Shown: piece after piece, positions 31,112-47,969 of the stretch
Layout: every line of letters begins with the position of its first letter
Numbering within the stretch: position 1 is the first letter of the stretch
Source: a virus
Virus record (IMG/VR): IMGVR_UViG_3300025652_000049
Location: 12,424-76,423 of that record
DNA: 64,000 nucleotides
Direction: 5' to 3' (one strand)
Program-made: the position numbers and the translations under genes
The notes under the pieces: generated by a model
The model's input: only the letters and a program-made list of their open reading frames with translations
What the model was told of the DNA's origin: nothing
The model's database searches: none

Positions 31112-31352
31112 TGTGAATTTTTGTTGCGTTAATACTTCTTTTTATAACACTATGAAAATGCTTTCCTTTACTTTCGGATTCATAGAAATTATCATAATCT
31201 TCTTGAGTTGATGGACTGTATCTATAAATACTTCCATTACCAAATCTAATATATATTGCTTTTCCTGAAGCAGTATGTCCAATCTCTTTAATTTGAGAAC
31301 TTGCAACTTCCTCTGTTTGCAAGTCCTCTTCTTTTGCGTAGCTACTTATCAT
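31104..31352 (-). CDS. KTSC-domain protein
   Basis: SSQIKEIGH...IRFGNGSIYRY...SKGKHFHSVIK consensus. Confidence 0.85.
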   Translation of the reverse strand: MISSYAKEEDLQTEEVASSQIKEIGHTASGKAIYIRFGNGSIYRYSPSTQEDYDNFYESESKGKHFHSVIKRSINATKIHNG

Positions 31353-33007
31353 CCGAACATTGGATTAGGACTCGTAGTTTTACTGTAAACCGATGGGTCA
31401 ATTATTACACACTCTGTTGTCAATAGCATTCCAGAAATAGAACCTGCGTTTTGCAAAGCTACTCGCGTAACCTTTACTGGATCTATAATTCCTTGTTTAA
31501 TCATACTCTCAACAAAGACACCAGCTCTAGCATCATAACCATGTTCCCAATTATTTTGACAATTGTCAAAATCTTCTAAATCTATTTCTTCAACTCCTAC
31601 ATTACTTATTATCTGATTAAATGGAGATTTAATAGCTTCCATCACAATATCAATACCAGCCTGTAAAGATGGATTATTGTTTCTTGTTTCAATTTCCATC
31701 TTGCTTAATGATAGCAAAGCCGTTCCACCACCGGGAATAATACCTTCCTGAACAGCGTTCTTAGTCGCGTGCAAAGCATCGTTAATCCTATGCTGCTTTT
31801 CTAGAAACTCTGTGTCTGAATAAGCACCAAGATTTATATAAGCTACACCATCAGTAAGCCTAGAGATACGCATATGTAATATGTTTTTCTCATAAGGAGT
31901 TGTTACAGTTTTTATTTTTTCTCGTAAAGAATCTGCTCTTTCTTCCATTTGCTTACGAACCTTCGCTCTGTATTCTTTTGTTCCAGCTACGCCTTTAATG
32001 GAAGTATATTGTAAACCAACACTAATGCCTTTTGCTTTTGGTAAAGAAGCCATTACATCCTCTTTAGCAAGACTATTAAACTGAACACCTTCTTCTTTAA
32101 GAAACGGAGCTTTGCCAAGGGCAGAACCTATATCTCTAAGAGTATGCATTTGCTCATCACCGAAGTCTGGAGCTACACACACGCATACTTTAAAGTTTGC
32201 CTTTGCGACATTAGTAACTAACATTGACAATACAACATCATCGATTTTAGGAACTACAATAAGTAAATTAGCCGTTTCTTCATTAACAGTTTCTAACAAA
32301 TGATTGAAGTTCTCACTTACATCTGTAAGAGGCTCATTACTAAGATACACATAGGTTTCGTCAAACTCACAAGTCTCGTTCTTCATGTCTGTCATAAAGT
32401 AAGGAGAAGCTAACCCCATTGGTAAGTTCATTCCTTGAATTGTAGTCAAATACGTTTCATATGTTCTAGATCGTTTGATGTTTACGATACCTTGCTTTCC
32501 AGCAGCTTCGTAAGCTTGAATAACTAAATCTGCAATTTCCTCATCGTTATTAGAAGATATCAAAGCAACTTGCTTTAACATTTTTGGAGAATCTTTAACC
32601 GAAATAGATTTTGACTCTAAGGCATCTACAATTAATGAAATACACTTATCAATACCTCTTTTAACTTCTAAGCGGTTGAGGTTTTTATCTAAGTTAACTC
32701 CAGCTTTGAAAATAGCTGCGGCCAAAACTGTTGCAGTCGTGGTACCATCTCCTGCTAGTTCATCAGATTTGTTGGCAACATCCTGAACCGATTCTATAGC
32801 AACCATCTCAATAGGTACGTCAGAGAAAACTTCTCTAGCAACTGTTACTCCATCCTTAACCGAGAAAGGACGAGCCTCACCTTTTACCCTAATCAGAACA
32901 TTAGATCCGCTTGGACCCAATGTAACCTTTACCGCTTTTTCAATTTGTTCAAGACCCGAAAGCAATCCTTTACGAGCCTCATCACCATATATAATATTTT
33001 TGTTCAT
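31349..33007 (-). CDS. groEL: Phage-encoded chaperonin GroEL
   Basis: VKVTLGPSG, KDGVTVA, AGDGTTTATVLA, GIIPGGG and GIIDPVKVTRVAL motifs. No GGM tail. Confidence 0.95.
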   Translation of the reverse strand: MNKNIIYGDEARKGLLSGLEQIEKAVKVTLGPSGSNVLIRVKGEARPFSVKDGVTVAREVFSDVPIEMVAIESVQDVANKSDELAGDGTTTATVLAAAIFKAGVNLDKNLNRLEVKRGIDKCISLIVDALESKSISVKDSPKMLKQVALISSNNDEEIADLVIQAYEAAGKQGIVNIKRSRTYETYLTTIQGMNLPMGLASPYFMTDMKNETCEFDETYVYLSNEPLTDVSENFNHLLETVNEETANLLIVVPKIDDVVLSMLVTNVAKANFKVCVCVAPDFGDEQMHTLRDIGSALGKAPFLKEEGVQFNSLAKEDVMASLPKAKGISVGLQYTSIKGVAGTKEYRAKVRKQMEERADSLREKIKTVTTPYEKNILHMRISRLTDGVAYINLGAYSDTEFLEKQHRINDALHATKNAVQEGIIPGGGTALLSLSKMEIETRNNNPSLQAGIDIVMEAIKSPFNQIISNVGVEEIDLEDFDNCQNNWEHGYDARAGVFVESMIKQGIIDPVKVTRVALQNAGSISGMLLTTECVIIDPSVYSKTTSPNPMFG

Positions 33008-33740: not shown

Positions 33741-34076
33741 TTAAACTTCCTTGAAAATATACTCATCTAAACGAATAGCAATAACAGCTTCTTTCGTTAC
33801 ATTTAAAAAACGCTCCCTTTCTCCAACACCAGGAAACTTCATCATCGTTGAAACATGACTGTGATAAAAAACAACACAACCAACTGCCGCCGCATTACCC
33901 TGTTCACCAACAGCCTCAATCACTCCTACATCATATAGATACTCTTCCGCATCCGATGTAGAGAACTGACTAGAATTCTTATTCTTATAATAATCTTCTA
34001 GAGGGGTAACCAATAAATTAGTCTCTCCGACCCAAATACCTTCTAGCCCTTTAATAACACTCATTACTTTATTCAT
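33741..34076 (-). CDS. Co-chaperonin GroES-like protein
   Basis: VGETNLLVTP...GVIEAVGE...VGCVVFY...VTKEAVIA follows the GroES pattern; one gene away from GroEL. Confidence 0.7.
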   Translation of the reverse strand: MNKVMSVIKGLEGIWVGETNLLVTPLEDYYKNKNSSQFSTSDAEEYLYDVGVIEAVGEQGNAAAVGCVVFYHSHVSTMMKFPGVGERERFLNVTKEAVIAIRLDEYIFKEV

Positions 34077-34099
34077 AAAATATTATTTATAATTTTTAA

Positions 34100-34123
34100 C
34101 AAATCTACGCCTATTAGACGTAA
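34100..34123 (-). promoter_or_regulatory. -7 box TAGATTTG overlapped by palindromic operator-like site (copy 1)
   Basis: CAAATCTACGCCTATTAGACGTAA, 20/24 identical to 35165-35188. Confidence 0.55.
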
Positions 34124-34193
34124 TCCGCAAACTTTTATAATAGTACATCCATACATCCCCTTTTCCTCCACATACATCATAACCTATTATAAT

Positions 34194-34219
34194 AAAAAAC
34201 CACCTGCCGAAACAGGTGG
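34194..34219 (-). terminator. Rho-independent terminator
   Basis: CCACCTG/CAGGTGG stem with a T-tract on the minus strand. Confidence 0.65.
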
Positions 34220-34271
34220 AAAAAGTATTGAGTTAATTAAAACTACATTCATTATAGCAAGTGCAAGATAC

Positions 34272-34302
34272 AAAAAAAAGCCTAACACGAATGCAAGGCT
34301 TT
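34272..34302 (-). terminator. Rho-independent terminator
   Basis: AAAGCCT/AGGCTTT stem with T8 on the minus strand. Confidence 0.5.
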
Positions 34303-34343
34303 AAATTCAAATATTTAGATATCCATTATGTCCTTAGACGCAC

Positions 34344-34697
34344 CTAATTATAAACCGAGCGAAAGCTCGACAATCTATTGGGGAGGGTTTCTAATGGTGG
34401 CTTCTCGATAATGCTTATGTAATTATATTTATAACGACTCCTTCGAAACAAGTCTGGGCCCATATACGAGGGAACAAAAAACGTGCGATCAATACGATTA
34501 ATCTTTTCTAAGGTAGAAGCACTTGTTATCTGATAATCAAAACTCTCTGTTTGATTAAGGACAACTGCATCCGGTGAAACTGAATCAACGAATGATACTA
34601 GCTCAATGCCAACATCATCATCTAATAGCTTAGGAACCTCTGCCGAAGCAATGGAAAACGTAAAAGCCATTAGGAGTACTACAAGGAAATTTTTCAT
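34344..34697 (-). CDS. Secreted protein (signal peptide); start revised to 34697
   Basis: MKNFLVVLLMAFTFSIASA-E signal peptide. The longer ORF-track start falls inside a terminator. Confidence 0.6.
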   Translation of the reverse strand: MKNFLVVLLMAFTFSIASAEVPKLLDDDVGIELVSFVDSVSPDAVVLNQTESFDYQITSASTLEKINRIDRTFFVPSYMGPDLFRRSRYKYNYISIIEKPPLETLPNRLSSFRSVYN

Positions 34698-34737
34698 TGT
34701 ATTTCTGTATTTAATGATTAATAAAGTATAAATATAT

Positions 34738-34772
34738 AAAAAAAATGCTTCCCTACTACAAGAAGCATTTTT
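34738..34772. terminator. Bidirectional terminator
   Basis: AAAAATGCTTC/GAAGCATTTTT inverted repeat. Confidence 0.6.
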
Positions 34773-34838
34773 CATATCAACTAATTAACTAAAAAACATA
34801 CCAACCAAATATGTCTTATGAAAACATAAATATACAAC

Positions 34839-35042
34839 TTATTTCGGAACTGTATAATCAAGGATAATATGAACCATAGCCTCAAATTTAAAATTGTCAG
34901 CAATCTCACTCGCGCTATTTTTGTGAAAAGTAGGATATAAAAAAATATTGCAGTACCCATGAATCTCAGCACCATCCATACCCTTATCTATCATACGAGC
35001 AATAATATCATCATTCCAATATGGCGTCTTACACCTACTCAT
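34839..35042 (-). CDS. Hypothetical protein
   Basis: 67 aa, among the first leftward genes. Confidence 0.5.
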   Translation of the reverse strand: MSRCKTPYWNDDIIARMIDKGMDGAEIHGYCNIFLYPTFHKNSASEIADNFKFEAMVHIILDYTVPK

Positions 35043-35164
35043 ATTTCTTATTCTTTAATCTGAAACATTCCTCAGTAAAACCTCGCATCAATAAACGATT
35101 CCGAATACGCCTCTCTAAACATAATTCTACCATAACACCACTATTTATATTAATATCTATTAAG

Positions 35165-35188
35165 CAAAACTACGTCAAATAGACGTAA
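35165..35188 (-). promoter_or_regulatory. -7 box TAGTTTTG overlapped by palindrome TACGTC-N5-GACGTA (copy 2)
   Basis: Heads the leftward arm and matches 34100-34123. Confidence 0.55.
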
Positions 35189-35255
35189 CAAAAAAACCAA
35201 ACATAAAATAAAAAATTTCCAAAATTTATTCGCTCGTTTGCTTAATAGTAAAATT

Positions 35256-35290
35256 CCCCCTACCATAATCTTGTTTATGGGGTAGGGGGG
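35256..35290. other. GC-rich hairpin at the transcription divergence point
   Basis: CCCCCTACC...GGTAGGGGG inverted repeat. Confidence 0.6.
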
Positions 35291-35298
35291 TCTCTATT

Positions 35299-35315
35299 AA
35301 AAACTCATAAAAGAG
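35299..35315 (+). promoter_or_regulatory. Repeated early motif AAACTCATAAAAGAG (copy 1; candidate phage RNAP promoter)
   Basis: The core recurs at 35775, 38119, 41549 and 43852 on the same strand. Confidence 0.5.
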
Positions 35316-35358
35316 AGTCCTAATCGTTAGTGTCTCTTTATAATTTAATTTATTTACT

Positions 35359-35517
35359 ATGTCTTATTTATCATCACTTCGTACCAAAGTATCGACCCTT
35401 AATGCACAACCTGTGCCTAACTCTTACACCAAGCTTGACATCTTTCGTGTTAAAGCTACAGTTGTTGCTGGCTTTACTGTGGGGTATATTCAAGGATCAT
35501 TAACTAAAACTAAATAG
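35359..35517 (+). CDS. Small early protein (52 aa, hydrophobic C-terminus)
   Basis: MSYLSSLRTKV...VVAGFTVGYIQGSLTKTK. Below the ORF-track cutoff. Confidence 0.55.
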   Translation: MSYLSSLRTKVSTLNAQPVPNSYTKLDIFRVKATVVAGFTVGYIQGSLTKTK

Positions 35518-35521
35518 ACTC

Positions 35522-35776
35522 ATGGCTATCAAGAAATCTACTACCATTGCATCAGCTGTCGCTGCTGCTGGAACTACTGCATCCATCTGGCATGCCTCTA
35601 CTGCCACTACTATGGCTGTCACATCTACTGCTGGCGCTACCGCCGGCTCAGGCACAATGGTCTTTAAGACTGTTGCCGCAGGCTTGGGCTCCAAGCTTCT
35701 CATCGGTGCTTTATGCATCGGTGCTACTGCTGCCGTCACCTACATGGTTTACACTCACCTAGAGAGTAAATCATAA
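35522..35776 (+). CDS. Ala/Thr-rich early membrane protein
   Basis: 84 aa with a C-terminal TM helix. Confidence 0.6.
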   Translation: MAIKKSTTIASAVAAAGTTASIWHASTATTMAVTSTAGATAGSGTMVFKTVAAGLGSKLLIGALCIGATAAVTYMVYTHLESKS

Positions 35777-35802
35777 ACTCATAAAAGAGAACTTTTGTTC
35801 AT

Positions 35803-35840
35803 CCTCTTGCTCATCCTCTTGGATAGGCAAGGGGCTTTTT
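35803..35840 (+). terminator. Terminator-like hairpin immediately upstream of the hammerhead
   Basis: CCTCTTGC...GCAAGGGG stem followed by CTTTTT. Confidence 0.55.
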
Positions 35841-35846
35841 CTAATT

Positions 35847-35895
35847 CTGTCGTGTAGTATGTGCTACACCTGATGAGGTTGTTAGACCGAAACAG
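35847..35895 (+). ncRNA. Type III hammerhead ribozyme
   Basis: CUGUC^ - stem I GUGUAG(U)/(G)CUACAC - CUGAUGA - stem II GGUU/GACC with loop GUUA - GAAA - CAG closing stem III. All conserved core nucleotides are present. Predicted cleavage after C35851. Confidence 0.88.
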
Positions 35896-35914
35896 TTACT
35901 TAATACTTATTCTA

Positions 35915-36190
35915 ATGGTACATTCCTTCTCATCCGACTATAAGAACGGCAACATCACTATCACCTTCACCGATGGTGATGAGGTTAAGACGATCTTCTT
36001 TGTTAATAGCACTGTCGCATACGACATCGCTTATAACACACTTCAATGGCGATATGATATGTCTGGTTACACAGAATATCAAGGAGACTCTGGCTACTTA
36101 AAAGCCATCACACACATGCGCAAATGTGGTCTCTCATTCATGAAGCATCCACAAGATTGCGACATGTTTATTCCCCACTATAAAGCATGA
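35915..36190 (+). CDS. Early hypothetical protein (start revised to ATG 35915, downstream of the ribozyme)
   Basis: MVHSFSSDYKNG... The ORF-track GTG start lies inside the hammerhead. Confidence 0.6.
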   Translation: MVHSFSSDYKNGNITITFTDGDEVKTIFFVNSTVAYDIAYNTLQWRYDMSGYTEYQGDSGYLKAITHMRKCGLSFMKHPQDCDMFIPHYKA

Positions 36191-36228
36191 CATCATGTCA
36201 ATTTATAGCCTTCAAACTACATCTGTAG

Positions 36229-36292
36229 AGTAAGCGAGATCTGTTTACCCAAATCTATTAATCTATTTTGGGTAAGCAGGATCTGTTTACCG
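36229..36292. repeat. Two copies of the imperfect palindrome GTAAGCnnGATCTGTTTACC (third copy at 39872-39894)
   Basis: Seen directly. Confidence 0.75.
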
Positions 36293-36757
36293 CCCGATTA
36301 CGATGATGCCAATGTTTACAGGGCTTCACACGTTTTACCTAAAAAAGTCGTATAGTATATACTATATATACCGACGGACTAGGACGTGGCAGAGACTGAC
36401 AGAGTGTGCTCAATCAGTATGTGTCCTCTTAGTCTAACTTGGTAAACCACTGCGGTTCTCTGCGGTGTTATACTAATGTTATCTGTCTTATTATAAGCTG
36501 TCATTGTTTGTTATTAAAAAGGCGTAGTTATGTGCCTACTATGGTGCATTACTATTTTGTTATTTATAAACATCTTTTACTTTATTAACGTAGTGATTGC
36601 TTGCGGTCACTATGTTGATTTATTTAAGTTACTGCGGTAGTTTACTATCGCTTCGTCTTCGTTCGGTGCTACGCACCTCTCTCATCCTCGCTAGGGGATA
36701 TTATTTAATTTATTATTTATTTATTTAAAATCATCTGATTCCAAGGATGTAAAATAC

Positions 36758-37054
36758 TTGGTCACTATTGTTATGATATCTATATCGCTTGATGATGTTG
36801 TTATTGCGAAGCAATCTGCTACTGGTTATGCACCTCTATGTATGGAGGTTGCTAACGTTGCAATATATCTTCATCGTGAGAGAACACATGGGTTCTCTAA
36901 CTACTCTTTCAGGTTATGTCCTGACGACAACTGCTATTATGGTAAGATTCGAGGCTCTGTTCAAGGGCTTGAGCTTGCTATGGCAGATATTGAATTCTTT
37001 GGTATTTCTATCAAAGACTTCGACAGATACCTACGTCCTCTTTTAGACGACTAG
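36758..37054 (+). CDS. Early hypothetical protein (start uncertain, perhaps ATG 36773)
   Basis: ORF with early-gene codon style. Confidence 0.55.
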   Translation: MVTIVMISISLDDVVIAKQSATGYAPLCMEVANVAIYLHRERTHGFSNYSFRLCPDDNCYYGKIRGSVQGLELAMADIEFFGISIKDFDRYLRPLLDD

Positions 37055-37061
37055 GTATCAA

Positions 37062-37108
37062 TGCATGTATGGTATGATTACCTAGAGGTTCGATTCCTCT
37101 TCATGCAG
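37062..37108 (+). ncRNA. tRNA-like mini element (acceptor-like stem, perfect T-arm, one small hairpin)
   Basis: TGCATG/CATGCA stem, GGTA-TGAT-TACC hairpin and AGAGG-TTCGATT-CCTCT T-arm. Too short to be a complete tRNA. Confidence 0.55.
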
Positions 37109-37153
37109 CTAACTTTAAATCTAAAAGGTTGTGACTTACCACACACATTTATT

Positions 37154-37525
37154 ATGAGAAAATTATCTTTATTACGTGAATCTCTTATGCAGTCTAAGAC
37201 TGCTGCTACTTCTATGGAAACCTTCAACAACTTAAGGTTTACTAGTCTATCCTCTGCTTATGAACATAAGATTGTTGCTGACAAAATCAACTCAAACAAT
37301 TACAAAACTATGCTTACTGCTAGTGGTATTGTTTGGGGTGCTGCTATTGGAACTTATGTTGCAGGCTCAACACTACTTGTTGCAGGCGCAGTATTAGCAG
37401 GAACTACTGTTGTTGGCACTGCTACTGCTCTTGCTGTTAACAACAGGCGTATTATTAAAAACTCTAATGAGTTTTTGAATAACGGAGATTACATTACTCC
37501 TGAGCCTATAACTATTAATCTTTAA
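37154..37525 (+). CDS. Early membrane protein (start revised to 37154)
   Basis: ACATTTATT-ATG context shared with other genes; Gly/Ala-rich TM hairpin. Confidence 0.6.
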   Translation: MRKLSLLRESLMQSKTAATSMETFNNLRFTSLSSAYEHKIVADKINSNNYKTMLTASGIVWGAAIGTYVAGSTLLVAGAVLAGTTVVGTATALAVNNRRIIKNSNEFLNNGDYITPEPITINL

Positions 37526-37535
37526 TCTATAAACT

Positions 37536-37691
37536 ATGTACAATCCTCGTCTTATTATCTCAGCTATGAGAACTTATGGTTGCTCTGCTATTGAAGCTAT
37601 TCAATGGCTTGGGCAACCTCATGAAAATGCATTCTTATTTACTAACGGCAATGTTCATATTCCAGAGTGCTGGAATACTGATGCCATTTAA
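37536..37691 (+). CDS. Small early protein (51 aa)
   Basis: MYNPRLIISAMRTYGCSAIEAIQWLG... fills the intergenic gap. Confidence 0.55.
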   Translation: MYNPRLIISAMRTYGCSAIEAIQWLGQPHENAFLFTNGNVHIPECWNTDAI

Positions 37692-37703
37692 AACCTATCT
37701 ATT

Positions 37704-37946
37704 ATGGATTCTTATTTCCTTGCACAGTTATTACGTCTAAAGATACACCTAATCACTATCAATGATTGTGATGATGTTGTTGCCTACTATACTGAAAAGT
37801 TTGTCAATACTGATAAACACGTCTTCATTTATACTCATGGGTACTTCAGTACCAATTCTAATAGTTGGGTTAATAAAACCCATATCGTCACCTCCAGTGA
37901 GGATCTTGAGTATCACCTAAAGAACTTTGGTAAATCTTTTTACTAA
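37704..37946 (+). CDS. Early hypothetical protein
   Basis: 80-aa ORF. Confidence 0.55.
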   Translation: MDSYFLAQLLRLKIHLITINDCDDVVAYYTEKFVNTDKHVFIYTHGYFSTNSNSWVNKTHIVTSSEDLEYHLKNFGKSFY

Positions 37947-37960
37947 AAACTATATAAACT

Positions 37961-38128
37961 ATGAATTATAATATTCCTGTTATTGAATTAGACCTATCCA
38001 TTCGGCTTCTCAATGTGTTAAAGCGTAATGGTATATTCTTTTTGTCTGACATTAAAAACATCGATAATGTTAAATGGCTTGACAAACGTACCAAAGATGA
38101 GCTATTGTTAGCTCTCAAAAACTCATAA
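37961..38128 (+). CDS. Stand-alone RNA polymerase alpha-CTD-like miniprotein (55 aa)
   Basis: IPVIELDLSIRLLNVLKRNGIFFLSDI...WLDKRTKDELLLAL resembles the RpoA CTD pattern LELTVRSANCLK..I..IGDL...LGKKSLTEI. Not in the ORF track. Confidence 0.7.
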   Translation: MNYNIPVIELDLSIRLLNVLKRNGIFFLSDIKNIDNVKWLDKRTKDELLLALKNS

Positions 38129-38241
38129 AAGAGTACCACGTATTAAAGAGTTTCTTGCGTGTCTAAATAACGAAGCCTCTTAACCCTAGCCCTCTTTTGG
38201 GGGCTAACATTGCGCGATGTCAAGCGCATTATAAGTGTGAC

Positions 38242-38581
38242 CACATTTATTATGAAAGCACCTGCTTTTAAATCAATCCTAGCTACGGCTATTGGGTATG
38301 CCTCTGGCGATGCCCACATTATTGTTCAATCAATGGCTGACGGTATCGTTCGCTTTGAGTCTAAGCTTGTTAACAAGCTGACCAAAGAATCACGTCACGA
38401 CATTGAAAAACAACGTCATCAGCACACAGTTGAGACACAAGAGCTTGTTAAAGCCACTACTGCTAGAGCTGTAGGCTTTATCGGAGCGATATTCAAAGCT
38501 TCTACTAAACCATTAGTTAGTGGTGAGAATATAAATTTCGAGGAAGGACAAACCATTTATGCTCCTGAATCAAATGCGTAA
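38242..38581 (+). CDS. Early hypothetical protein (start revised to the ATG of MKAPAF, approx.)
   Basis: ACATTTATT-ATG context. Confidence 0.55.
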
Positions 38582-38954
38582 CTCTCACAAGGGAGCTATA
38601 TTATTTATAGCCATCTGTATATTGGCATTCCTAATTGGCAGTTATATCTTAACTGCTACATTCTTTGGAGTGCTAATATTAGTTGGTTTAATAGTGCTCA
38701 TCGAAAGCATCCCACCTTTACGGTGGTTGATGGCAAAGACCTCAAGAGTCGTAGACATATGCATCTTTGTATTCTCCATTATAGCAATGGCATCTTATGG
38801 CTTAAACATCACCGCTGCGCTTACCGTAGCTGGTGTTGGTTACACATTGATATATGCACCCCATTTAAGGGAGCAGAGTATCATTAATAAAAACAAAACT
38901 AACCGATCCGCAGCGGCCGGTTATAAATCTAAATTTAATCACAATCCAAAATAA
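38559..38954 (+). CDS. Early multi-pass membrane protein
   Basis: About 4 hydrophobic helices. Confidence 0.65.
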   Translation: MLLNQMRNSHKGAILFIAICILAFLIGSYILTATFFGVLILVGLIVLIESIPPLRWLMAKTSRVVDICIFVFSIIAMASYGLNITAALTVAGVGYTLIYAPHLREQSIINKNKTNRSAAAGYKSKFNHNPK

Positions 38955-38962
38955 GTATTATT

Positions 38963-39298
38963 ATGAGAACTAAATTCGTACCAGTTACATTAGTAACATC
39001 TTCGGACCAGCAAGACGCTATAATGTCTTCAACATTTCCAATCTTCAGCTCTAATGAGTTTAAAGAAACAAGATCTTCTGTCTTAGAATTCTTAGACTCA
39101 TGTGTCTATATCACTAGACCTATGAGCATACCTAACCAGTATTCTAAATTTATCAATCGATACTTTCCTGTCTCTGAAGCAGGAGTAGAATCACTGATAA
39201 AGTTTCGTAAGCATAACCGTCAATCGATTAAGCAACGAAACAAAGGCGCTGTTAAAGCGCAAGCTATGTTTGTTCGTGATATAAAACAAACAGCTTAA
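38963..39298 (+). CDS. Early hypothetical protein (basic C-terminus)
   Basis: 111-aa ORF followed by a terminator. Confidence 0.6.
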   Translation: MRTKFVPVTLVTSSDQQDAIMSSTFPIFSSNEFKETRSSVLEFLDSCVYITRPMSIPNQYSKFINRYFPVSEAGVESLIKFRKHNRQSIKQRNKGAVKAQAMFVRDIKQTA

Positions 39299-39306
39299 AA
39301 ACAACA

Positions 39307-39339
39307 AAGCCCAGTTCTACAGAGAGCTGGGCTTGTTTT
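39307..39339 (+). terminator. Rho-independent terminator
   Basis: AAGCCCAGTTCT/AGAGCTGGGCTT stem followed by GTTTT. Confidence 0.75.
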
Positions 39340-39422
39340 CATATATGAAGATAATGTCAATAACCTAAAATATATGAACACTACAAATATATGCTATTTA
39401 TACTTACGAGTTATAACTAGTA

Positions 39423-39827
39423 CTAAAATTCTTTGTGTGTCCATCTACCTAATGGTACATGATATTTACATTCTTTTTTAAGATTATCCATATCAGGCTT
39501 TCCAATGTAATGCATTGCCCAAGGTAGTACTACAAAGTATCTAACCGCATCAATGGTATATTCATTCATAAAGCCAATACCTATTAACTTGTTTTTGTCT
39601 CGGTGAAATGACTGCTTGTGTTTATAATTATAACTCAAGTAGTCGCCGGGCAAGAACATCTTTTCTACCGTATGACCTTGCTTTGGTCTACGGTTCCAGA
39701 CATCCCTCAACAGCTTGTTAGAAGTGGCTGATAGTTGATACATATTATCAATCAATTCATCACTGATAACTCGTGCGTACTTACTACTGTATTCTTTGAG
39801 AAGGGTTCGGACTATTTGTTGTTTCAT
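39423..39827 (-). CDS. Counter-oriented winged-helix DNA-binding protein (RepL-like, tentative)
   Basis: QSFHRDKNKLIGIGFM...RYFVVLPW resembles a wHTH recognition helix plus wing. It has its own TATATTTG box at 39855-39862. Confidence 0.5.
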   Translation of the reverse strand: MKQQIVRTLLKEYSSKYARVISDELIDNMYQLSATSNKLLRDVWNRRPKQGHTVEKMFLPGDYLSYNYKHKQSFHRDKNKLIGIGFMNEYTIDAVRYFVVLPWAMHYIGKPDMDNLKKECKYHVPLGRWTHKEF

Positions 39828-39931
39828 ATTGCTTATTCTAAGTTATTGACACTACAAATATATATAATTCTCGGTAAGCAAGATCTGTTTACCGTACTAC
39901 ATTTATTAATTAATTATTTAATACATTTATT

Positions 39932-40357
39932 ATGAGAAATTTAAGCTTAATGATTGTCGGATTTAAAATAACTAGCTATGTATCATCAACACGTAAAGCT
40001 AATGTTAGCGTGGTCTTCGGAGAAGAAGGAGACTTGAAGCGTAAGCTATTCAAGAACATGACCATTAGTGGTCTATTGCGTTCACGTCTGGATAGACAAA
40101 CGCAAGGATATGAGGTAGGCACTCAATATTTATCTGTAAACAATAGTACAGATTGGAAAGAGAATCCTTTTCAACTAATTCGCTATGGTTCTAAAGAATC
40201 TCCTGAGTACATGCTTGACTGCGTAGATAAACGCAACAGCAGTAAGAAGGTATCTCAAAGCCCTATCGATGGTAGTAATGTTATTACCTATAAGAACAGA
40301 TGGCACAAGCCAGAGTTTTACTTACGTTACAGAGATAATACTAAAGCTACTGTATAA
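39932..40357 (+). CDS. Hypothetical protein
   Basis: 141 aa with an ACATTTATT-ATG start. Confidence 0.65.
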   Translation: MRNLSLMIVGFKITSYVSSTRKANVSVVFGEEGDLKRKLFKNMTISGLLRSRLDRQTQGYEVGTQYLSVNNSTDWKENPFQLIRYGSKESPEYMLDCVDKRNSSKKVSQSPIDGSNVITYKNRWHKPEFYLRYRDNTKATV

Positions 40358-40473
40358 TGAAGCATCTAAATAAGACCGAAAAGGTCTACATAGCCAGCAT
40401 CGTAGTTATATCTACGGTGCTTGTCGCTGTATGCGCATACAAAATCATTATTCATAATCTAAACATACTCTAA
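40357..40473 (+). CDS. 38-aa single-TM protein
   Basis: MKHLNKTEKVYIASIVVISTVLVAVCAYKIII...; TAATG overlaps at both ends. Confidence 0.6.
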   Translation: MKHLNKTEKVYIASIVVISTVLVAVCAYKIIIHNLNIL

Positions 40474-40985
40474 TGGCAAAGCCACTATACCGAATACTAA
40501 GTCCTGATGGTTTTGATATTTATCAAAACAAGCTATATCTTAAGTCTGAGATTAACGATGCTTATCAAAAATGGAGCGATGGCTTCAAACATCAAGGCTA
40601 TTATAGTTTATTAAGAACTAAAATACCACTTGACAAACTCAAAGACTATTGTATAATAAATAAAACAAGAGCCAAGCGTTACAAATCTAAAGAGATTTTG
40701 AAGCTTGATGATTTGTATGAACTACAAGACTCATTCTGTAGTTCTGGTATTACATTCCAATACAGGTTAACTGCCGGTGAACTTAAATGGGCAAGACATA
40801 TTAATGGTAAATACCTTATTGCTGATTTTGTTTTCGAAAATATTGACGAAAACAACATACTTACTTTCTGGGATCCTGAAGAACTTAAACAAGTTATCGA
40901 GGACGATGGCATGCCTCCGAAAGCTGTAATGCTTTCTGATGATACGGCTTTACAGAAATTATTCTTTTGGTTATCGAACAATTAA
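40473..40985 (+). CDS. Hypothetical protein
   Basis: 170-aa ORF. Confidence 0.65.
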   Translation: MAKPLYRILSPDGFDIYQNKLYLKSEINDAYQKWSDGFKHQGYYSLLRTKIPLDKLKDYCIINKTRAKRYKSKEILKLDDLYELQDSFCSSGITFQYRLTAGELKWARHINGKYLIADFVFENIDENNILTFWDPEELKQVIEDDGMPPKAVMLSDDTALQKLFFWLSNN

Positions 40986-40996
40986 ATCTTAAACTT

Positions 40997-41329
40997 ATGG
41001 AAACTCTATCAATTGTTTTGACAATACTTTACATTTTAATGAACCTCATCTATATGATTAAAAGCCACAGGTTTTTAGGTTGTATTTATGGAAAATACAA
41101 TTCACCCATACATATTCTTTCATTTGTTCTTATATTAGCATACTTCTATGTGATTGTGTTTCGAACAGATTGGTATTTGTATAATATCATTAGCATTTTA
41201 ATAGGAGCTCTAATAGGTGCCTGGGCTACATTCTTTGCGAAGCGATTCATAAAACATAACGATCTTGTAGAAAATGCTTATAAGAATTATACTCATATTA
41301 AAAAAGATGATAATGAAATTAACAGCTAG
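40997..41329 (+). CDS. Three-TM membrane protein (start probably METLS)
   Basis: Hydrophobic helices. Confidence 0.6.
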   Translation: METLSIVLTILYILMNLIYMIKSHRFLGCIYGKYNSPIHILSFVLILAYFYVIVFRTDWYLYNIISILIGALIGAWATFFAKRFIKHNDLVENAYKNYTHIKKDDNEINS

Positions 41330-41558
41330 GCAAATAATAACCAGCAAGGTCTTACATATCAACGGAACTAATCGCACATATTCAATGACTCCAGAAGGTC
41401 AAGTTTATAATCGTTTTACCAAAAAGATTCTCAAAGAGCTTGAGCATTCTTCTGGTAGTGGAAACAAATACGTTTCTATTCGAATAGCAAAAGATAAAAC
41501 TAGCTTCAAGGTTTATATTGATAAATGGCGTAATGAATTGTTTCCTAAAAACTCATAA
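41313..41558 (+). CDS. Stand-alone NUMOD4-like domain protein (no HNH)
   Basis: YSMTPEGQVYNRFTKKILK...GNKYVSI matches NUMOD4. The ORF stops before any HNH motif. Confidence 0.6.
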   Translation: MKLTARQIITSKVLHINGTNRTYSMTPEGQVYNRFTKKILKELEHSSGSGNKYVSIRIAKDKTSFKVYIDKWRNELFPKNS

Positions 41559-41559
41559 A

Positions 41560-41676
41560 ATGAAATACATGCATTCTAAAGCCCTAACTATAGGCAAAAG
41601 GATACTAGGGTATCTTTTAACGTCAGGATGGTTTATAATAGCCATCTACTGGATGTCGAGAGCATATATCTGTTAA
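41560..41676 (+). CDS. 38-aa single-TM protein
   Basis: MKYMHSKALTIGKRILGYLLTSGWFIIAIYWMSRAYIC. Confidence 0.45.
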   Translation: MKYMHSKALTIGKRILGYLLTSGWFIIAIYWMSRAYIC

Positions 41677-41687
41677 GATATATTCCT

Positions 41688-41695
41688 TATCTTTG
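41688..41695 (+). promoter_or_regulatory. Bacteroidota -7 box TATCTTTG
   Basis: About 30 nt upstream of ATG 41724. Confidence 0.55.
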
Positions 41696-41723
41696 AATAT
41701 ATTAATATATAAATCTATTCAAA

Positions 41724-42095
41724 ATGAGTGCATCTGCAAGAAAAGATTACGGAGCTGGAGCCGTAATCGACCCTTCACAAGAAACGGTGAAGCGTATTAA
41801 CAACATGAATAACCCATATAGTGTTCAGCAACTAGGGTTAGACAAAAGTGATGATAACGGAGCATCGCCTAAATACATCGCGATTACATCCGAATCATTA
41901 GATGCTTTAACAGCTAACACCAGAGTATTACTTGGTAACCGAGAGGGAGTTGTTAAAAGCGTAAATACACCAGTGGCAACGCTAGTGGATTGTGTTATCA
42001 CTATTCGTGATAAAGAAAAAGTTGATATTGACACAACCTACACAAAGGCTGAACTGTTGGCATCACCAATTATATTCTTTGCGACGAACGCATAG
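41724..42095 (+). CDS. Hypothetical protein in its own transcription unit (possibly structural)
   Basis: Has its own promoter box and terminator; composition resembles a virion protein. Confidence 0.65.
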   Translation: MSASARKDYGAGAVIDPSQETVKRINNMNNPYSVQQLGLDKSDDNGASPKYIAITSESLDALTANTRVLLGNREGVVKSVNTPVATLVDCVITIRDKEKVDIDTTYTKAELLASPIIFFATNA

Positions 42096-42117
42096 AATAC
42101 ATTTTAACTTATGAATT

Positions 42118-42145
42118 AAGCTACCATTCTTTGGTGGCTTTTTTT
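42118..42145 (+). terminator. Rho-independent terminator
   Basis: AAGCTACCA/TGGTGGCTT stem followed by a T-run. Confidence 0.8.
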
Positions 42146-42163
42146 ATGCAATAAATTATAGCA

Positions 42164-42706
42164 ATGAGTCAAACAATTAAAAAGTTAGATCTTCTCAATG
42201 AGAAGACAACAGTAGACAACTACCCTTACGGTAGAAAACAATGCGAAATGACATTCGCAGTTGAGCATAAAACAGGTAAAGGATTTCGTACTTGGAGACA
42301 ATCCAAGAACCCTACAACTGGTAGATTAAACAAACCAAAGCTTAGTACATACTACAGTTTCTTGGCAATGTATATGAATGAAGATAATCACGTAAAATAT
42401 TACGCGAATAATATTCGAGGTATTGATGATGTTAAAAATCTACAGCAATGGCTTAAAGTACACGCTGATCAGATTAATTTAACAGACGAAGAATCACAAA
42501 CCTTATGGTGTACCATTGTAGCATCGTATAAAATTAGCATGGCTTGGTTCGACTGCAAGGAGGGATTTACTATTAAAGATGCACTAGAGGCTTCCCCAAT
42601 CAAAGACCTCATCACTTGCTACGGTTCTCATGCACCTATCCAACAATTAATTGATGTAGAACTAGACCGACCTGAAATGGAGGCTATGCGTAAAACTAAA
42701 TCGTAA
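42164..42706 (+). CDS. Conserved phage hypothetical protein
   Basis: VDNYPYG...GKGFR...NPTTGRLNKPKLSTY motif. Confidence 0.65.
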   Translation: MSQTIKKLDLLNEKTTVDNYPYGRKQCEMTFAVEHKTGKGFRTWRQSKNPTTGRLNKPKLSTYYSFLAMYMNEDNHVKYYANNIRGIDDVKNLQQWLKVHADQINLTDEESQTLWCTIVASYKISMAWFDCKEGFTIKDALEASPIKDLITCYGSHAPIQQLIDVELDRPEMEAMRKTKS

Positions 42707-42707
42707 A

Positions 42708-43214
42708 ATGAAAAACCTCATAATAGTTTTATTGTTTACTTGCATGCAAGTAATGCAATCACAGAATGCTGTTGGTTTTAGCGCAAGCTTAGACAACAAG
42801 CTGACATTCCTAGAAGACAATCATGGCAATATGCCATTTACTCTTGACTTATCTACAAAGATGTCGCTACAAGGGTATCAGAAAAAGCTAGGTTACTTAC
42901 AAATTGCTATTAAATATGAATATGCAGATTTGTCTAGTGGAGACTTCCATAGATATGCAGCAGAAGTAGGATACGTATTTACCAATGGAGCATTAGGATT
43001 AATGCCTTCGGTTGGTTACGGATTTATAGGGCGCGAAAATAGAGGCTCTACTCAATCTTGGGAGTTTGGTATAATGCCATCGTTCTTAATAATCCCTAAC
43101 TTAAAGCTTATTGTTGGATTTGTTTGGACAGAGAGAACAGACCTTCTAGGTCAATACAGATTTAATATTAACACAGGCTTACAATTTGATATAGCCTTAA
43201 AAGACTACAGATAA
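42708..43214 (+). CDS. Outer-membrane beta-barrel protein (about 8 strands)
   Basis: Signal peptide with Gln+1 and alternating amphipathic strands with aromatic girdles (KYEYADL, AEVGYVF, FNINTGLQF). Confidence 0.7.
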   Translation: MKNLIIVLLFTCMQVMQSQNAVGFSASLDNKLTFLEDNHGNMPFTLDLSTKMSLQGYQKKLGYLQIAIKYEYADLSSGDFHRYAAEVGYVFTNGALGLMPSVGYGFIGRENRGSTQSWEFGIMPSFLIIPNLKLIVGFVWTERTDLLGQYRFNINTGLQFDIALKDYR

Positions 43215-43216
43215 CT

Positions 43217-43546
43217 ATGGACAATTTAATATTTATATTAATAGCAATAATATCATTCGCGTTAGGCTTTACAGTAGCCTCAAGAATGATGAGAGAAAGA
43301 ATGGAAGAATCTATTGATGCTTTAGACGATTACTATCTTAAGGAAAACCAGAGCTTGATCAGTAAGCTCCATAAAATGAGATTGAGAAGAAATGAAATAG
43401 TATCATTTGTAGACAGCAGTGAGTTTGCTGACCTGCTCCATAAGTTTCGACATGGAGACAGGGCTAACATTAAACAAAATGCTGACAGATTCAGAGCATT
43501 AAAAATATCATTAATTTCTAAACTAAACGATTATAATGAGAACTGA
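43217..43546 (+). CDS. Membrane-anchored hypothetical protein
   Basis: N-terminal TM helix. Confidence 0.6.
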   Translation: MDNLIFILIAIISFALGFTVASRMMRERMEESIDALDDYYLKENQSLISKLHKMRLRRNEIVSFVDSSEFADLLHKFRHGDRANIKQNADRFRALKISLISKLNDYNEN

Positions 43547-44186
43547 AACGATAGTGATATACGAGTTTCATGAGCTTGACATACCTGTTCAACAAAGTCT
43601 TGTTGATAAAGTTGAGGTATCCACTGAGTTTATATATCAAGACGCAGAAGAAACTGTCAAATCTTTTTGTAAAGCATTTGACGTTAAAACACACATAAAC
43701 AATTGGCTTCAATTTGCTTGTTGGAATCCTTATCTAGATCACGAATATGAACAAGAAGTTTGTGAGCTTACAGGTATGCGATTAAGAACATATCTAATTA
43801 ATAACTATGGACATGTTTTGTACAAAGGTAAATACTATGGTAACCTTTCTAAAACTCATAAAAATGGAACTCCTATACTTGTATGTAAAGCACATCCGGC
43901 TGGAATGAGACATATCAAAAGATATTCAAAAGTTATTTTTGAAAGAGATTGTAGTTTAACTGGAGTTTGTTATGACATTTCTATAATGAAACCAATTTAT
44001 AATTTCATTGACAACCCTAATGAAGTTGATACTATCGATGTATTATTTGACAATTGCTTCACTTCACTTGAAATAGACATTAAAGGTCAAGAAGATTATT
44101 ATCATACAGATGATGCTAAAGCGGAGCAAGTAGAGATTAACGATAACGAATATTTAAAAGATGGAACAATATGGATAAACGAATAG
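43536..44186 (+). CDS. Conserved phage hypothetical protein
   Basis: YEFHEL...CSLTGVCYD...NDNEYLKDG pattern. Confidence 0.65.
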   Translation: MRTETIVIYEFHELDIPVQQSLVDKVEVSTEFIYQDAEETVKSFCKAFDVKTHINNWLQFACWNPYLDHEYEQEVCELTGMRLRTYLINNYGHVLYKGKYYGNLSKTHKNGTPILVCKAHPAGMRHIKRYSKVIFERDCSLTGVCYDISIMKPIYNFIDNPNEVDTIDVLFDNCFTSLEIDIKGQEDYYHTDDAKAEQVEINDNEYLKDGTIWINE

Positions 44187-44842
44187 TAAATTTTCTAGGA
44201 TTTAATTGCATAGTACAAATAGGTGCTTATGGCAATGGTAGAATGGCAATATCATTGGTGTCTAAAAAAGACCATGAACCAGTGGCTACAGCAACAGTAA
44301 ACTTGCCGGCCGAACCTATTATGGGAGGTCATGTTTTCATTAAAGATTATTCTGAAAACAAAGGAATGCTTGATGCATTAGTTAGTGCTGGTATTGTTAT
44401 TTTTGACGAGCATGACCAGCATGCAATTGATACAACAGGACGAAGTGACATGGCTTGGATGGTAAAATATGTACCACCAGGACAAATACCTAAACCACCT
44501 AAAGCAGAATCAATTCCAAGTCCTGAAACCTTTTTAAAGACATTAGGTTTTAAACCATATATAAATGCTTTTCCTGATACACATCAATGGAAAGTTCATG
44601 ATAATTATATGGACAATGAGTTTTGGATTGTACATGATATTGAGATTCTAATGAAAATAGCATATACTGATTCAACTAGAAAGGATCAACAAGCATTTGC
44701 TAATCTTGTTTCTAATATGCCCAACCTAATTGCATGCACAGAAATATTGCATGACATACAATATGTTGGTGCCGAGAAAGAAAACTTAGTGGGCCTAATG
44801 GTTAGAAACTTTCTAATAGAACTGGGTACTATTAAAAAATGA
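44171..44842 (+). CDS. DUF4313-like domain protein with C-terminal extension
   Basis: YGNGRMAISL...ATVNL...FIKDYSENKGMLDAL. Confidence 0.65.
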   Translation: MDKRIVNFLGFNCIVQIGAYGNGRMAISLVSKKDHEPVATATVNLPAEPIMGGHVFIKDYSENKGMLDALVSAGIVIFDEHDQHAIDTTGRSDMAWMVKYVPPGQIPKPPKAESIPSPETFLKTLGFKPYINAFPDTHQWKVHDNYMDNEFWIVHDIEILMKIAYTDSTRKDQQAFANLVSNMPNLIACTEILHDIQYVGAEKENLVGLMVRNFLIELGTIKK

Positions 44843-44855
44843 TAAAATATGAAGA

Positions 44856-47390
44856 ATGACACTTAATTTTACAGATGATACTGTATATAACTATGAACCT
44901 GGGAGCATTGACAACATACGTCGTATGCTCCCTAAGTTATATGAGGAACAAGTTGAAGATGTTCTTAGAGCTGAAAACAGATACCTATCAGGTGGAAAAG
45001 GATATCTGTTCACAAATGGAACAGGTACCGGAAAAACCTATGTAGGTCTTGGTGTAGCTAAGAGATTTTGGGCTCAAAACAAAAGAGATATATTGATTGT
45101 TGTTCCAACAGAACAGAAGTGTATTGACTGGATTTCAGAAGGTAGTGTTTTAAACCTTACGATATCTATGCTCAAAGACACAAACGACGGAGGTAGTTTG
45201 TTTTGCGTAACTACTTATGCAAACTTCTACCAGAACGATGCATTGATTATGAGAAATTTTGATTTAATAATATATGACGAATCTCATTATTTGAATCAGA
45301 ACCAACAAGGCAAAGAGACAAGCTACCTATCTAAACACAAGTTAATATCAAAGCTACCATCTGCTTGCAAGGAGTTAGCAAAGGGTGTTATTTCAGAATA
45401 CCCGCAGTTTAATGATGGTGATGATTATGAAACTTGGAGATGGCAATTAGATGCTTGGAACAAACAGCTTACTCACCATACTGTTAGTCTGGTTGGTAGT
45501 ACTAAGGTTTTGTTTCTATCAGCAACTCCTTTTGCTTATCACAAGTCTATTAAATATGCTGATGGTTGTTTGTTTGATATAAACGAAACCATTAACGAAG
45601 GTTATAAGGATCATCCTTCATACAATGAGCCAGTAGGCTTTGACAATTTCCTTGTACAAAACTTTGGATATCGTATGCGTTACAATAAAGTGACCATACC
45701 CGAAAGTGGTGTAGATGTAAATCTTTTAGAACGACAGTTCTTTGAGAAACATAGAGAAATGGGTGTAATGTCTACAAGAGTTTTAAAGCTTGATGTAGAT
45801 TATTCTAGAGATTTCATAACCGTAGAAAGTGAGATAGGAACTTTCATTAATAGTGGTATGGAACTTTTTCATCATTCAGATTTCAGAGAGAAATATAAAT
45901 ACTTATCTGAAGTTGCAAGTAAAAAATACAATTACTTGTATGTGAATCAACTTTTAGAAGCTGTTAAAGCTCAAGAAGTAATTCCACGAATTCAATCTCA
46001 TTTAAACTTAGGAAGGAAAGTTGTTATATTTCATGGATATAATAACTCCGTAGTATCACACCCATTTCATTTCGATTTAGACAAGCTTCTTACATCTGAC
46101 ACTGAATGGATGTTTTCTTTGATTACCAAAGAGATTGCTCGTTTCAATATGGAATATCCTGAATATGTAAATCTTGACTTATCTAGGTTAGGAAACACCA
46201 GAGAAGTTATCTCTAGTGCATTTTATAATATGAAGCAATACAATGGTACTGTTTCTAAAAAGAAACGGAAAGATTACATAATTGACTTTAATCATGGAGA
46301 AACCTATTCTATTCTAGTACAAACTAGAGCAGGTAGAGAAGGTATATCACTACATGATACTGTTGGTGATAAACAGCGTGTTCTTATCAATCTAGGGCTT
46401 CCAGTCGCTCCTACCGAAGCTATTCAAACCGAAGGTAGAATATACAGAAGTGGAAGCAAGAGCGATGCTATCTATGAATACATAACGCTTCAAACTAATT
46501 TTGAGCGATATGCATTTGCAACCAAGATAGCAGAGAGGTCACGTACTGCCGAAAACCTAGCTATGGGTAACTTAGCTAGGGATTTACATACTGGCTTTAC
46601 CGAGGGTTACTTAAACTCTCACTATGAACCTCCTACCTTAGACCAAGGTAAAGGCGGTAAAGAATCAGATAGGCAGTTGCTAGACATTACAGATTTCGAT
46701 AGAGCAAAAACATATTATTTTGCTAAAGGAAAGAAAACATCTAGTAATAAGTCTAGAGAAGGTACAGATTACTATGCGACTCCTGAGCCATTAGGATATA
46801 AGATGGCAGAGTGGTTAGATATTAAAGCTGACAAACGAGCATTAGAACCTAGTGCTGGTCATGGTGCAATCGCGAGATGGTTTCCTGAACACTGTAACAA
46901 TACATTTATTGAACCTAGTTATGACTTACAATCACAATTAGTTATCAATTCAGGAAAAGCAAGAGTTATTCAAGACAGTTTTGAGAACTTTAATAATCAT
47001 AACAAGTTTGAGTACATAGCAATGAATCCTCCTTTTGGACAAGCTGGTAAAACAGCTATGGAGCATATTGACAAAGCTGTTACTATGCATATGTTTCGAT
47101 ATAGTCAAGAAGGATCTAAGTTGCTTGCTATCGTGCCTCAAGGTAATTCAATGCAAAAGAGATTAGATGCTTTTTATGAAAGCGTTCTCTTTGATGATTT
47201 CATAATGACAGGTGAAATTATATTACCTAGTTGCACATTCTCTAGAGCAGGAACTAATGTACATTGTAAAATAATACGAATAGTACATAAAAATACTCCT
47301 GGTGCAACATACAATCTAAAGTCAAAGGATTTTAGTTACTGTAAAGACATCGGAGAATTCTTCGATGAAATAGAACATTTTAATTTTTAG
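44856..47390 (+). CDS. SF2 (strawberry-notch-like) helicase fused to a C-terminal N6-adenine methyltransferase
   Basis: GTGTGKT, YDESH, SATP, REGISLHD and QTEGRIYR helicase motifs. LEPSAGHG (motif I) and MNPPF (motif IV). Confidence 0.85.
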   Translation: MTLNFTDDTVYNYEPGSIDNIRRMLPKLYEEQVEDVLRAENRYLSGGKGYLFTNGTGTGKTYVGLGVAKRFWAQNKRDILIVVPTEQKCIDWISEGSVLNLTISMLKDTNDGGSLFCVTTYANFYQNDALIMRNFDLIIYDESHYLNQNQQGKETSYLSKHKLISKLPSACKELAKGVISEYPQFNDGDDYETWRWQLDAWNKQLTHHTVSLVGSTKVLFLSATPFAYHKSIKYADGCLFDINETINEGYKDHPSYNEPVGFDNFLVQNFGYRMRYNKVTIPESGVDVNLLERQFFEKHREMGVMSTRVLKLDVDYSRDFITVESEIGTFINSGMELFHHSDFREKYKYLSEVASKKYNYLYVNQLLEAVKAQEVIPRIQSHLNLGRKVVIFHGYNNSVVSHPFHFDLDKLLTSDTEWMFSLITKEIARFNMEYPEYVNLDLSRLGNTREVISSAFYNMKQYNGTVSKKKRKDYIIDFNHGETYSILVQTRAGREGISLHDTVGDKQRVLINLGLPVAPTEAIQTEGRIYRSGSKSDAIYEYITLQTNFERYAFATKIAERSRTAENLAMGNLARDLHTGFTEGYLNSHYEPPTLDQGKGGKESDRQLLDITDFDRAKTYYFAKGKKTSSNKSREGTDYYATPEPLGYKMAEWLDIKADKRALEPSAGHGAIARWFPEHCNNTFIEPSYDLQSQLVINSGKARVIQDSFENFNNHNKFEYIAMNPPFGQAGKTAMEHIDKAVTMHMFRYSQEGSKLLAIVPQGNSMQKRLDAFYESVLFDDFIMTGEIILPSCTFSRAGTNVHCKIIRIVHKNTPGATYNLKSKDFSYCKDIGEFFDEIEHFNF

Positions 47391-47395
47391 AAATT

Positions 47396-47967: not shown

Positions 47968-47969
47968 TT

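Follow-up and report, generated by a model that had tools for sequence, protein, structure and literature searches.

A predicted type III hammerhead ribozyme near the start of the replication-gene arm of an uncultured crAss-like phage

Does a 49-nucleotide motif lying between two small open reading frames (ORFs) of an uncultured phage encode a genuine hammerhead ribozyme and, if so, what might self-cleavage at that place do to the transcript that carries it? The motif lies in the stretch of DNA that we analysed as a whole (referred to here as the window; 64,000 nucleotides, positions 12424–76423 of the 76,423-base IMG/VR virus record IMGVR_UViG_3300025652_000049, which CheckV rates as 94% complete). 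The source genome is that of an uncultured, 76-kb crAss-like phage. Its minus-strand arm (position 1 to about 34775) encodes the large terminase, the portal, the major head protein, a GroEL-type chaperonin and a 1550-aa protein that matches the Crassvirus muzzle family, and the cultured relatives found with TerL were, among the matches listed, only crAss-like phages (from human gut, Flavobacterium and Cellulophaga, at about 22–26% identity). The plus-strand arm (from about 35300) carries many small ORFs and then encodes a helicase/methyltransferase-like protein, a DnaB-like helicase and a Dda-like helicase. Because the replication module of the crAss-like model phage phi14:2 belongs to the early class, which is transcribed by the virion RNA polymerase (bioRxiv 10.1101/2020.03.07.982082), it is reasonable, by analogy, to label the plus-strand arm of our phage 'early'. 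(Note that the chaperonin gene, at 31349–33007 on the minus strand, is full length and sits at the start of the structural arm; its product scores 160.6 bits with Pfam Cpn60_TCP1, matches the PHROG family 'chaperonin groEL' and is 47–54% identical to the GroEL proteins of relatives.)

The letters at 35847–35895 are exactly those first written down for this element, which the first-pass annotation had taken for an intact type III hammerhead on the coding strand, and what we find agrees with that assignment: the core and the stems are complete, and both a structural descriptor and an independent covariance model (see below) pick the element out. In particular, the NUH cleavage triplet is GUC at 35849–35851, with C35851 as the unpaired H17; the core segment CUGANGA (C3 U4 G5 A6 N7 G8 A9) is present as CUGAUGA at 35870–35876; G12 A13 A14 are followed by the A15.1–U16.1 pair, in which A35892 stands opposite U35850; and G35877–C35888 provides the G10.1–C11.1 pair that closes stem II. 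There are three helices, of 7, 4 and 4 bp for stems I, II and III, respectively, the first two capped by loops and the third open; stem III (CUGU/ACAG) is counted as 4 bp because A15.1–U16.1 pairs too. Hammerhead self-cleavage leaves a 2',3'-cyclic phosphate on one product and a 5'-OH on the other, and the predicted cut site here falls between C35851 and G35852. With every sequence-defined feature of the family present, the motif is almost certainly a genuine type III hammerhead. The parts of the element and its neighbours are collected in Table 1.

Table 1. Features of the hammerhead locus (coordinates are those of the window).
Feature	Position	Strand	Remarks
Type III hammerhead ribozyme, whole, 49 nt	35847..35895	+	full core, three stems, R1 49.3 bits
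Stem III 5' strand CUGU (35847-35850) plus C17 (C35851)	35847..35851	+	GUC triplet; pairs with ACAG 35892-35895
Stem I hairpin, 7 bp, final pair U-G, 4-nt loop AUGU	35852..35869	+	
Core C3-A9, CUGAUGA	35870..35876	+	
Stem II hairpin, 4 bp GGUU/GACC, loop GUUA	35877..35888	+	G10.1-C11.1 present
G12 A13 A14 plus stem III 3' strand ACAG	35889..35895	+	GAAA = 35889-35892
Conserved head of plus-strand arm, GC hairpin plus invariant AAAAGAGAGTC	35254..35318	+	kept in window, L201 and G004
Upstream ORF (putative gene), 84 aa, Ala/Thr/Gly-rich, hydrophobic C-terminus	35522..35776	+	no family match
16-mer AAACTCATAAAAGAGA, second copy	35775..35790	+	overlaps stop codon of 84-aa ORF, just before hairpin
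Terminator-like GC-rich hairpin, 13 bp (35803-35834), then CUUUUUCU	35803..35842	+	ends 12 nt before ribozyme
A/U-rich leader, 19 nt, ribozyme to ATG	35896..35914	+	
Downstream ORF, 91 aa, ATG at 35915	35915..36190	+	no family match; L201 orthologue 36% identity, E 2e-13

How often would such a motif arise by chance? A loose type III descriptor (CUGANGA, GAAA, UH and three helices of at least 3 bp each) has a single match on both strands of the 64-kb window, namely 35847–35895, where 0.02 matches are expected per dinucleotide shuffle, and a descriptor as strict as the real element matched in 0 of 300 dinucleotide-preserving shuffles. With the Rfam model RF00008 (Hammerhead_3), which the first-pass annotation had proposed as a check, the alignment covers the whole 54-position model and matches all core positions; the score is 32.3 bits, with E values of 2.4e-5 when 301 nt are searched and 1.4e-6 when the search covers the genome. 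This score falls short of the gathering cut-off of 48.5 bits, and a default Rfam scan is therefore silent; the window element differs from the model in that its stem II and the loop on it are shorter.

The same element was assessed against hammerheads of other phages. A pattern scan of IMG/VR (TGTC...CTGATGAG...CGAAACA) gave at least 119 loci. About 100 sites in the loci listed fit the descriptor, and from these 84 non-identical sequences, with the window sequence excluded, were aligned and turned into a covariance model, R1, which thus represents 84 other phage type III hammerheads and contains nothing of the window. Searched with R1, the window yields 35847–35895 at 49.3 bits (E = 5e-11), the runner-up scoring 10.8 bits, and the window hammerhead is also the single match in the whole 76.4-kb record. 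Moreover, when at least 19 similar phage hammerheads in 15 loci were scored with RF00008, a single one reached the cut-off. A score below it is thus the rule for such hammerheads and is little evidence against the window element; and, because the cut-off misses almost all of them, routine annotation undercounts minimal type III phage hammerheads. (Note that the covariation count in the 84-sequence alignment was set aside and is not used as evidence here, since the sequences had been selected for pairing and the count would be circular.)

In thermodynamic folding of the isolated 49-mer, the hammerhead secondary structure lies 1.9 kcal/mol above the minimum free energy (MFE). The median of the same gap in the comparison set is 1.0 kcal/mol, with 74% of its members at or below 1.9 kcal/mol. 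When the element is folded in its sequence context the three-way junction is disfavoured by 2–6 kcal/mol; this penalty is uninformative because the comparison set behaves alike and because the energy model ignores the tertiary contacts of the core. The energy gap of the isolated element and its Rfam score below the gathering cut-off are what might be held in favour of a chance match, or of a hammerhead-like sequence that does not cleave. Yet the gap lies within the range of the comparison set and nearly the whole of that set is missed by the same cut-off, and both the E value obtained with the independent model and the absence of strict matches from the shuffles argue against such an explanation, which we regard as very improbable.

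The window element also resembles the other phage hammerheads in detail. Among the matches listed, the commonest architecture in the comparison set (31 of 84) has hairpins of 18 nt for stem I and 12 nt for stem II, and the architecture in the window is identical. The seventh nucleotide of the 18-nt stem I hairpin is U in 42 of 43 cases, and the last nucleotide of loop 2 is A in all 36 cases with a 12-nt stem II hairpin (both among the matches listed); the window likewise has U and A. These are the 5' U in loop 1 and the 3' A in loop 2 to which the first-pass annotation had drawn attention, and they do match conserved positions. They may take part in a tertiary contact between loops 1 and 2, the kind of contact on which fast hammerhead cleavage at physiological Mg2+ depends. 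With respect to its placement, the ribozyme is intergenic and in the sense orientation. A stop codon precedes it by 70 nt and an ATG follows after 19 nt; in the comparison set the corresponding median spacings are 34 and 22 nt among the matches listed.

A further property of the comparison set concerns the RNA immediately upstream. The 50 nt preceding the other 83 hammerheads fold, among the matches listed, with a mean of -15.3 kcal/mol, compared with -7.1 kcal/mol for random 50-mers and -8.3 kcal/mol for equally long stretches behind the remaining stop codons of these loci; on the downstream side of the comparison hammerheads, 50 nt fold weakly (mean of -4.0 kcal/mol). When we counted perfect hairpins of at least 5 bp with at least three G-C pairs that end no more than 12 nt from the ribozyme, one was present upstream of 46 of the 83 comparison hammerheads, with a median gap of 0 nt, and at 52 of 420 random positions. 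A T-run is found upstream of just 13% of the comparison hammerheads. These findings suggest that the upstream hairpin belongs to the functional unit. The window fits the pattern: the terminator-like hairpin and the downstream ATG noted in the first reading of the sequence are both real, the hairpin occupying 35803–35834 and being followed by CUUUUUCU. What is unusual is the 12-nt U-rich gap between hairpin and ribozyme, which resembles that of a true intrinsic terminator. (A separate observation is that CATCCTCTTG occurs twice in tandem, at 35800–35834; since both copies are able to pair with one and the same 3' arm, GCAAGGGG, the terminator-like hairpin has two alternative forms that exclude each other.)

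Where, then, does the ribozyme lie within the plus-strand arm? It had been placed at the head of the early operon. It is indeed only about 530 nt into the arm that carries the DnaB-like and other helicase genes, as measured from the conserved head element of that arm, but it stands behind one or two small ORFs and not before the first gene. The order of features is two small ORFs (35359–35517 and 35522–35776), a copy of the 16-mer, the 13-bp hairpin with its U-run, the ribozyme and the 91-aa ORF; since small ORFs precede it, the ribozyme, though close to the head of the arm, does not come first in it. The head element itself consists of a hairpin with the arms CCCC..ACC and GGGGTAGGGGGG, followed by the invariant AAAAGAGAGTC; it recurs at 3140–3250 (minus strand) of locus L201 and at 318–430 (minus strand) of locus L221, and is thus common to three phages whose TerL proteins are just 43–67% identical. 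It may be an early promoter or a start signal. A scan for sigma-70 promoters gave no usable result, since the host is probably a member of the Bacteroidota with different promoters.

Several repeats lie in the same region. Full copies of the 16-mer AAACTCATAAAAGAGA begin at 35301, 35775 and 38119, and 12-mer copies at 41549 and 43852, all on the plus strand; allowing up to three mismatches there are 8 matches where 2.6 are expected, and a close variant is present twice in L201, on the equivalent strand. Direct repeats of 21 nt (90% identical; 35296–35316 and 35770–35790) bracket a 474-bp block with the 52-aa and 84-aa ORFs; this block is missing in L201 and looks like an inserted or duplicated cassette. 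Downstream of the 91-aa ORF is an ORF-poor gap of about 570 nt (36190–36758) with four terminator-like hairpins on the plus strand (at 36530, 36584, 36634 and 36684) and a 20-nt repeat (at 36230 and 36272) within an inverted repeat. We found no tRNAs in the window or in the loci of eight relatives and, at gathering score, no other Rfam families in the window; a laxer E-value scan of 34000–48000 added nothing relevant.

Is the ribozyme conserved? A search of the cultured-phage collection at the DNA level yielded no match, and neither the 91-aa downstream ORF nor GroEL had a close counterpart among viral contigs; a metagenome scan for the 91-aa ORF was negative, and a search of 5.8 billion proteins returned only the window's own cluster. 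A search with TerL found 33 related viral contigs (40–68% identity) with a colinear structural module. When these TerL-related loci and 15 whole records were scanned with R1, a hammerhead was found only in G004, a complete genome of 78.9 kb (TerL 43% identical; R1 38.5 bits). The nearest relatives (TerL 66–68%), which include the complete genomes G001 and G002 (TerL 66–67%), have no hammerhead detectable with R1, and R1 has no match in Cellulophaga phage phi14:2 either. In L201 (TerL 67%) the head element is followed first by the orthologue of the 91-aa ORF, whose 85-nt leader lacks a ribozyme. We found no support for replacement of the hammerhead by a ribozyme of another class in relatives: no other self-cleaving families were detected in the loci of eight relatives, nor in the window.

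In G004 the head element is followed by a 60-aa ORF, and the hammerhead lies 36 nt after this ORF and 20 nt ahead of an ATG, so that the relative position of the ribozyme is as in the window. Between the window and G004 ribozymes, the latter being the sole positional counterpart, compensatory changes affect five pairs, three of them in stem I and two in stem II, and there are three further single changes that are compatible with wobble pairing; the G004 hammerhead has a GUA cut site and U-U at 10.1–11.1. (Note that the G004 hammerhead, at 78436–78488, corresponds to 16–68 on the minus strand of L221 and lies inside a repeat of about 470 bp present at both contig ends, that is, next to the assembly or genome terminus.) With respect to conservation and covariation among close relatives, to which the first-pass annotation had looked for confirmation, the outcome is thus mixed: the closest relatives do not have the ribozyme, and the distant G004 has it at the equal position with compensatory changes. 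Because the closest relatives are without the ribozyme and L201 keeps the orthologous gene, the ribozyme is dispensable for the downstream gene. As judged from these genomes, it is patchily distributed (1 of 6 near-complete relatives), yet it recurs at one place.

Recurrence at one place is also seen in a separate set of phage contigs that encode GroEL (most of them 46–61 kb). In these the hammerhead is divergent from the GroEL gene and lies 1.3–3.2 kb upstream of its start at 9 of 10 loci, one or two genes into the arm that is divergent from the structural genes; these contigs were found solely through their match to the hammerhead pattern. GroEL as a general marker of ribozyme phages was considered and rejected: the best 80 GroEL-bearing viral loci are without a type III hammerhead.

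The sporadic occurrence in 1 of 6 near-complete relatives, together with the direct repeats around an upstream ORF block that L201 does not have, raises the alternative that the ribozyme is a neutral passenger, acquired recently with an inserted cassette of small ORFs and, whether functional or decaying, without a role in expression. Decay is argued against by the core, every position of which is consensus, and by the intact helices. That the hammerhead of G004 sits at the equal relative position with its helices kept by compensatory changes, and that the hammerheads of the GroEL-encoding contigs keep to one place and orientation at 9 of 10 loci, likewise weigh against a passenger, and we judge this alternative improbable.

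We consider it probable that the element is a constitutive self-cleaving hammerhead in the plus-strand early/replication transcript, which cuts that transcript between cistrons and gives both pieces defined ends. From the sequence we infer transcription through the ribozyme, cleavage, and an effect on the stability or translation of the RNA, as follows. After the polymerase has moved beyond 35895, the hairpins of stems I and II would fold and the short stem III would close, and the RNA would cut itself co-transcriptionally after C35851. The upstream piece would carry the small ORFs at 35359–35776 and end in a 2',3'-cyclic phosphate 17 nt past the strong hairpin, which should block 3' exonucleases. 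The downstream piece would begin with a 5'-OH at G35852 and consist of the folded 44-nt body of the ribozyme, the unstructured 19-nt leader and the coding sequence from the ATG at 35915. As the cut would yield separate upstream and downstream pieces, the first small cistron or cistrons would be uncoupled from the remaining early message, with defined and structured ends on both sides. The length of stem III, just 4 bp, counts against this reading. In addition, because a terminator-like hairpin with a U-run lies 12 nt upstream, only transcripts that read through it or start very close by would hold the ribozyme.

What a 5'-OH end would do to the downstream mRNA can be approached from known systems. 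RiboJ, a synthetic insulator derived from the type III hammerhead of sTRSV, carries an added 3' hairpin. In E. coli, the only setting of the measurement, it raises protein 2- to 10-fold and transcript about 2-fold (PMC6206723); as is predicted for the window ribozyme, it cleaves itself within a 5' leader and so discards the RNA upstream, and the message then begins, a short way ahead of the translation start, with a structured 5'-OH end. The glmS ribozyme also cleaves itself in a bacterial mRNA leader to give a downstream product with a 5'-OH, but it depends on a metabolite and has an unrelated fold, and after its cleavage the mRNA is degraded by cellular RNases (PMC6765202). Stabilisation of the downstream mRNA by its 5'-OH, which was first suggested for this locus alongside the alternative that a separate upstream RNA would be released, is plausible, and in view of the decay that follows glmS cleavage we put it no higher; whether such an end stabilises or destabilises would depend on the RNases of the host.

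The glmS precedent of cleavage followed by RNase decay bears on another alternative, namely that the ribozyme backs up a leaky terminator or acts as a down-regulator: most transcripts would end at the hairpin and U-run, the ribozyme would cut those that read through, and the 5'-OH product would be degraded or poorly translated, lowering downstream expression. The terminator-like hairpin and U-run directly upstream fit this proposal, as does the orthologous gene of L201, which needs no ribozyme. However, the layout, with the ribozyme 19 nt before an ATG and an unstructured leader between them, as in most of the comparison set, suits downstream expression; the replication genes all lie downstream, so that silencing them seems unlikely; and since so few similar hammerheads (13%) have an upstream T-run, pairing with a terminator is not a general design. 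We therefore think this alternative unlikely, if somewhat less so than a neutral passenger, and return to cleavage between cistrons as the preferred reading.

Hammerheads of all three topologies were reported from phages and prophages in 2011; they cleave in vitro and in E. coli, and a role in the processing of long phage transcripts was proposed (Perreault et al., PMC3088659; also PMC6765202), and our preferred reading of the window ribozyme is of this kind. As in those cases, in which cutting into gene-length pieces was proposed, the window element has a consensus core and lies in the sense orientation between genes of a presumptive polycistronic transcript; it differs in being a single copy and not part of a cluster, in belonging to a crAss-like phage and in having a terminator-like hairpin ahead of it. 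In halovirus HF2 the 5' end of a major transcript maps within 3 nt of the hammerhead cut site (PMC3088659). There, too, an ORF follows closely on the hammerhead where a polycistronic phage transcript begins, but the HF2 ribozyme has an atypical insertion in its core and is salt-dependent, whereas the core in the window is fully consensus. The biological role of phage hammerheads has been called largely elusive (PMC6765202). A limited literature search found no paper on hammerheads in crAss-like phages. The window ribozyme is one more member of a large and already known group of phage hammerheads, to which a crAss-like host is a small extension; it adds a clean, fully consensus example from a crAss-like phage and leaves the general picture of hammerheads unchanged. 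It does offer a natural comparison, because the orthologous downstream gene of a relative, L201, has no ribozyme.

Tentatively, and as a possibility that we do not favour, we put forward a two-part cassette that would be common in environmental phages and of which the window, the crAss-like relative G004 and the GroEL-encoding phage contigs (mostly 46–61 kb) would provide instances. In it a strong GC hairpin directly abuts a minimal type III hammerhead or precedes it by a few nucleotides, and some 20 nt of unstructured leader separate the hammerhead from the next ATG. A single cut in such a cassette would produce both a hairpin-protected 3' end and a ribozyme-capped 5'-OH, and selection might repeatedly place the cassette behind the first small early gene or genes, separating off the first segment of the transcript. 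We found no description of a hairpin–hammerhead cassette in the literature. In most of eight loci (L004, L012, L027, L034, L061, L062, L064 and L086) the hairpin just upstream of the hammerhead is near-identical, with the sequence GTGTCTTCAAAGACAC, and some of these loci have the GTGTCTTCAAAGACAC hairpin beside two or three of their hammerheads; it may act as a signal for processing or for the binding of a protein.
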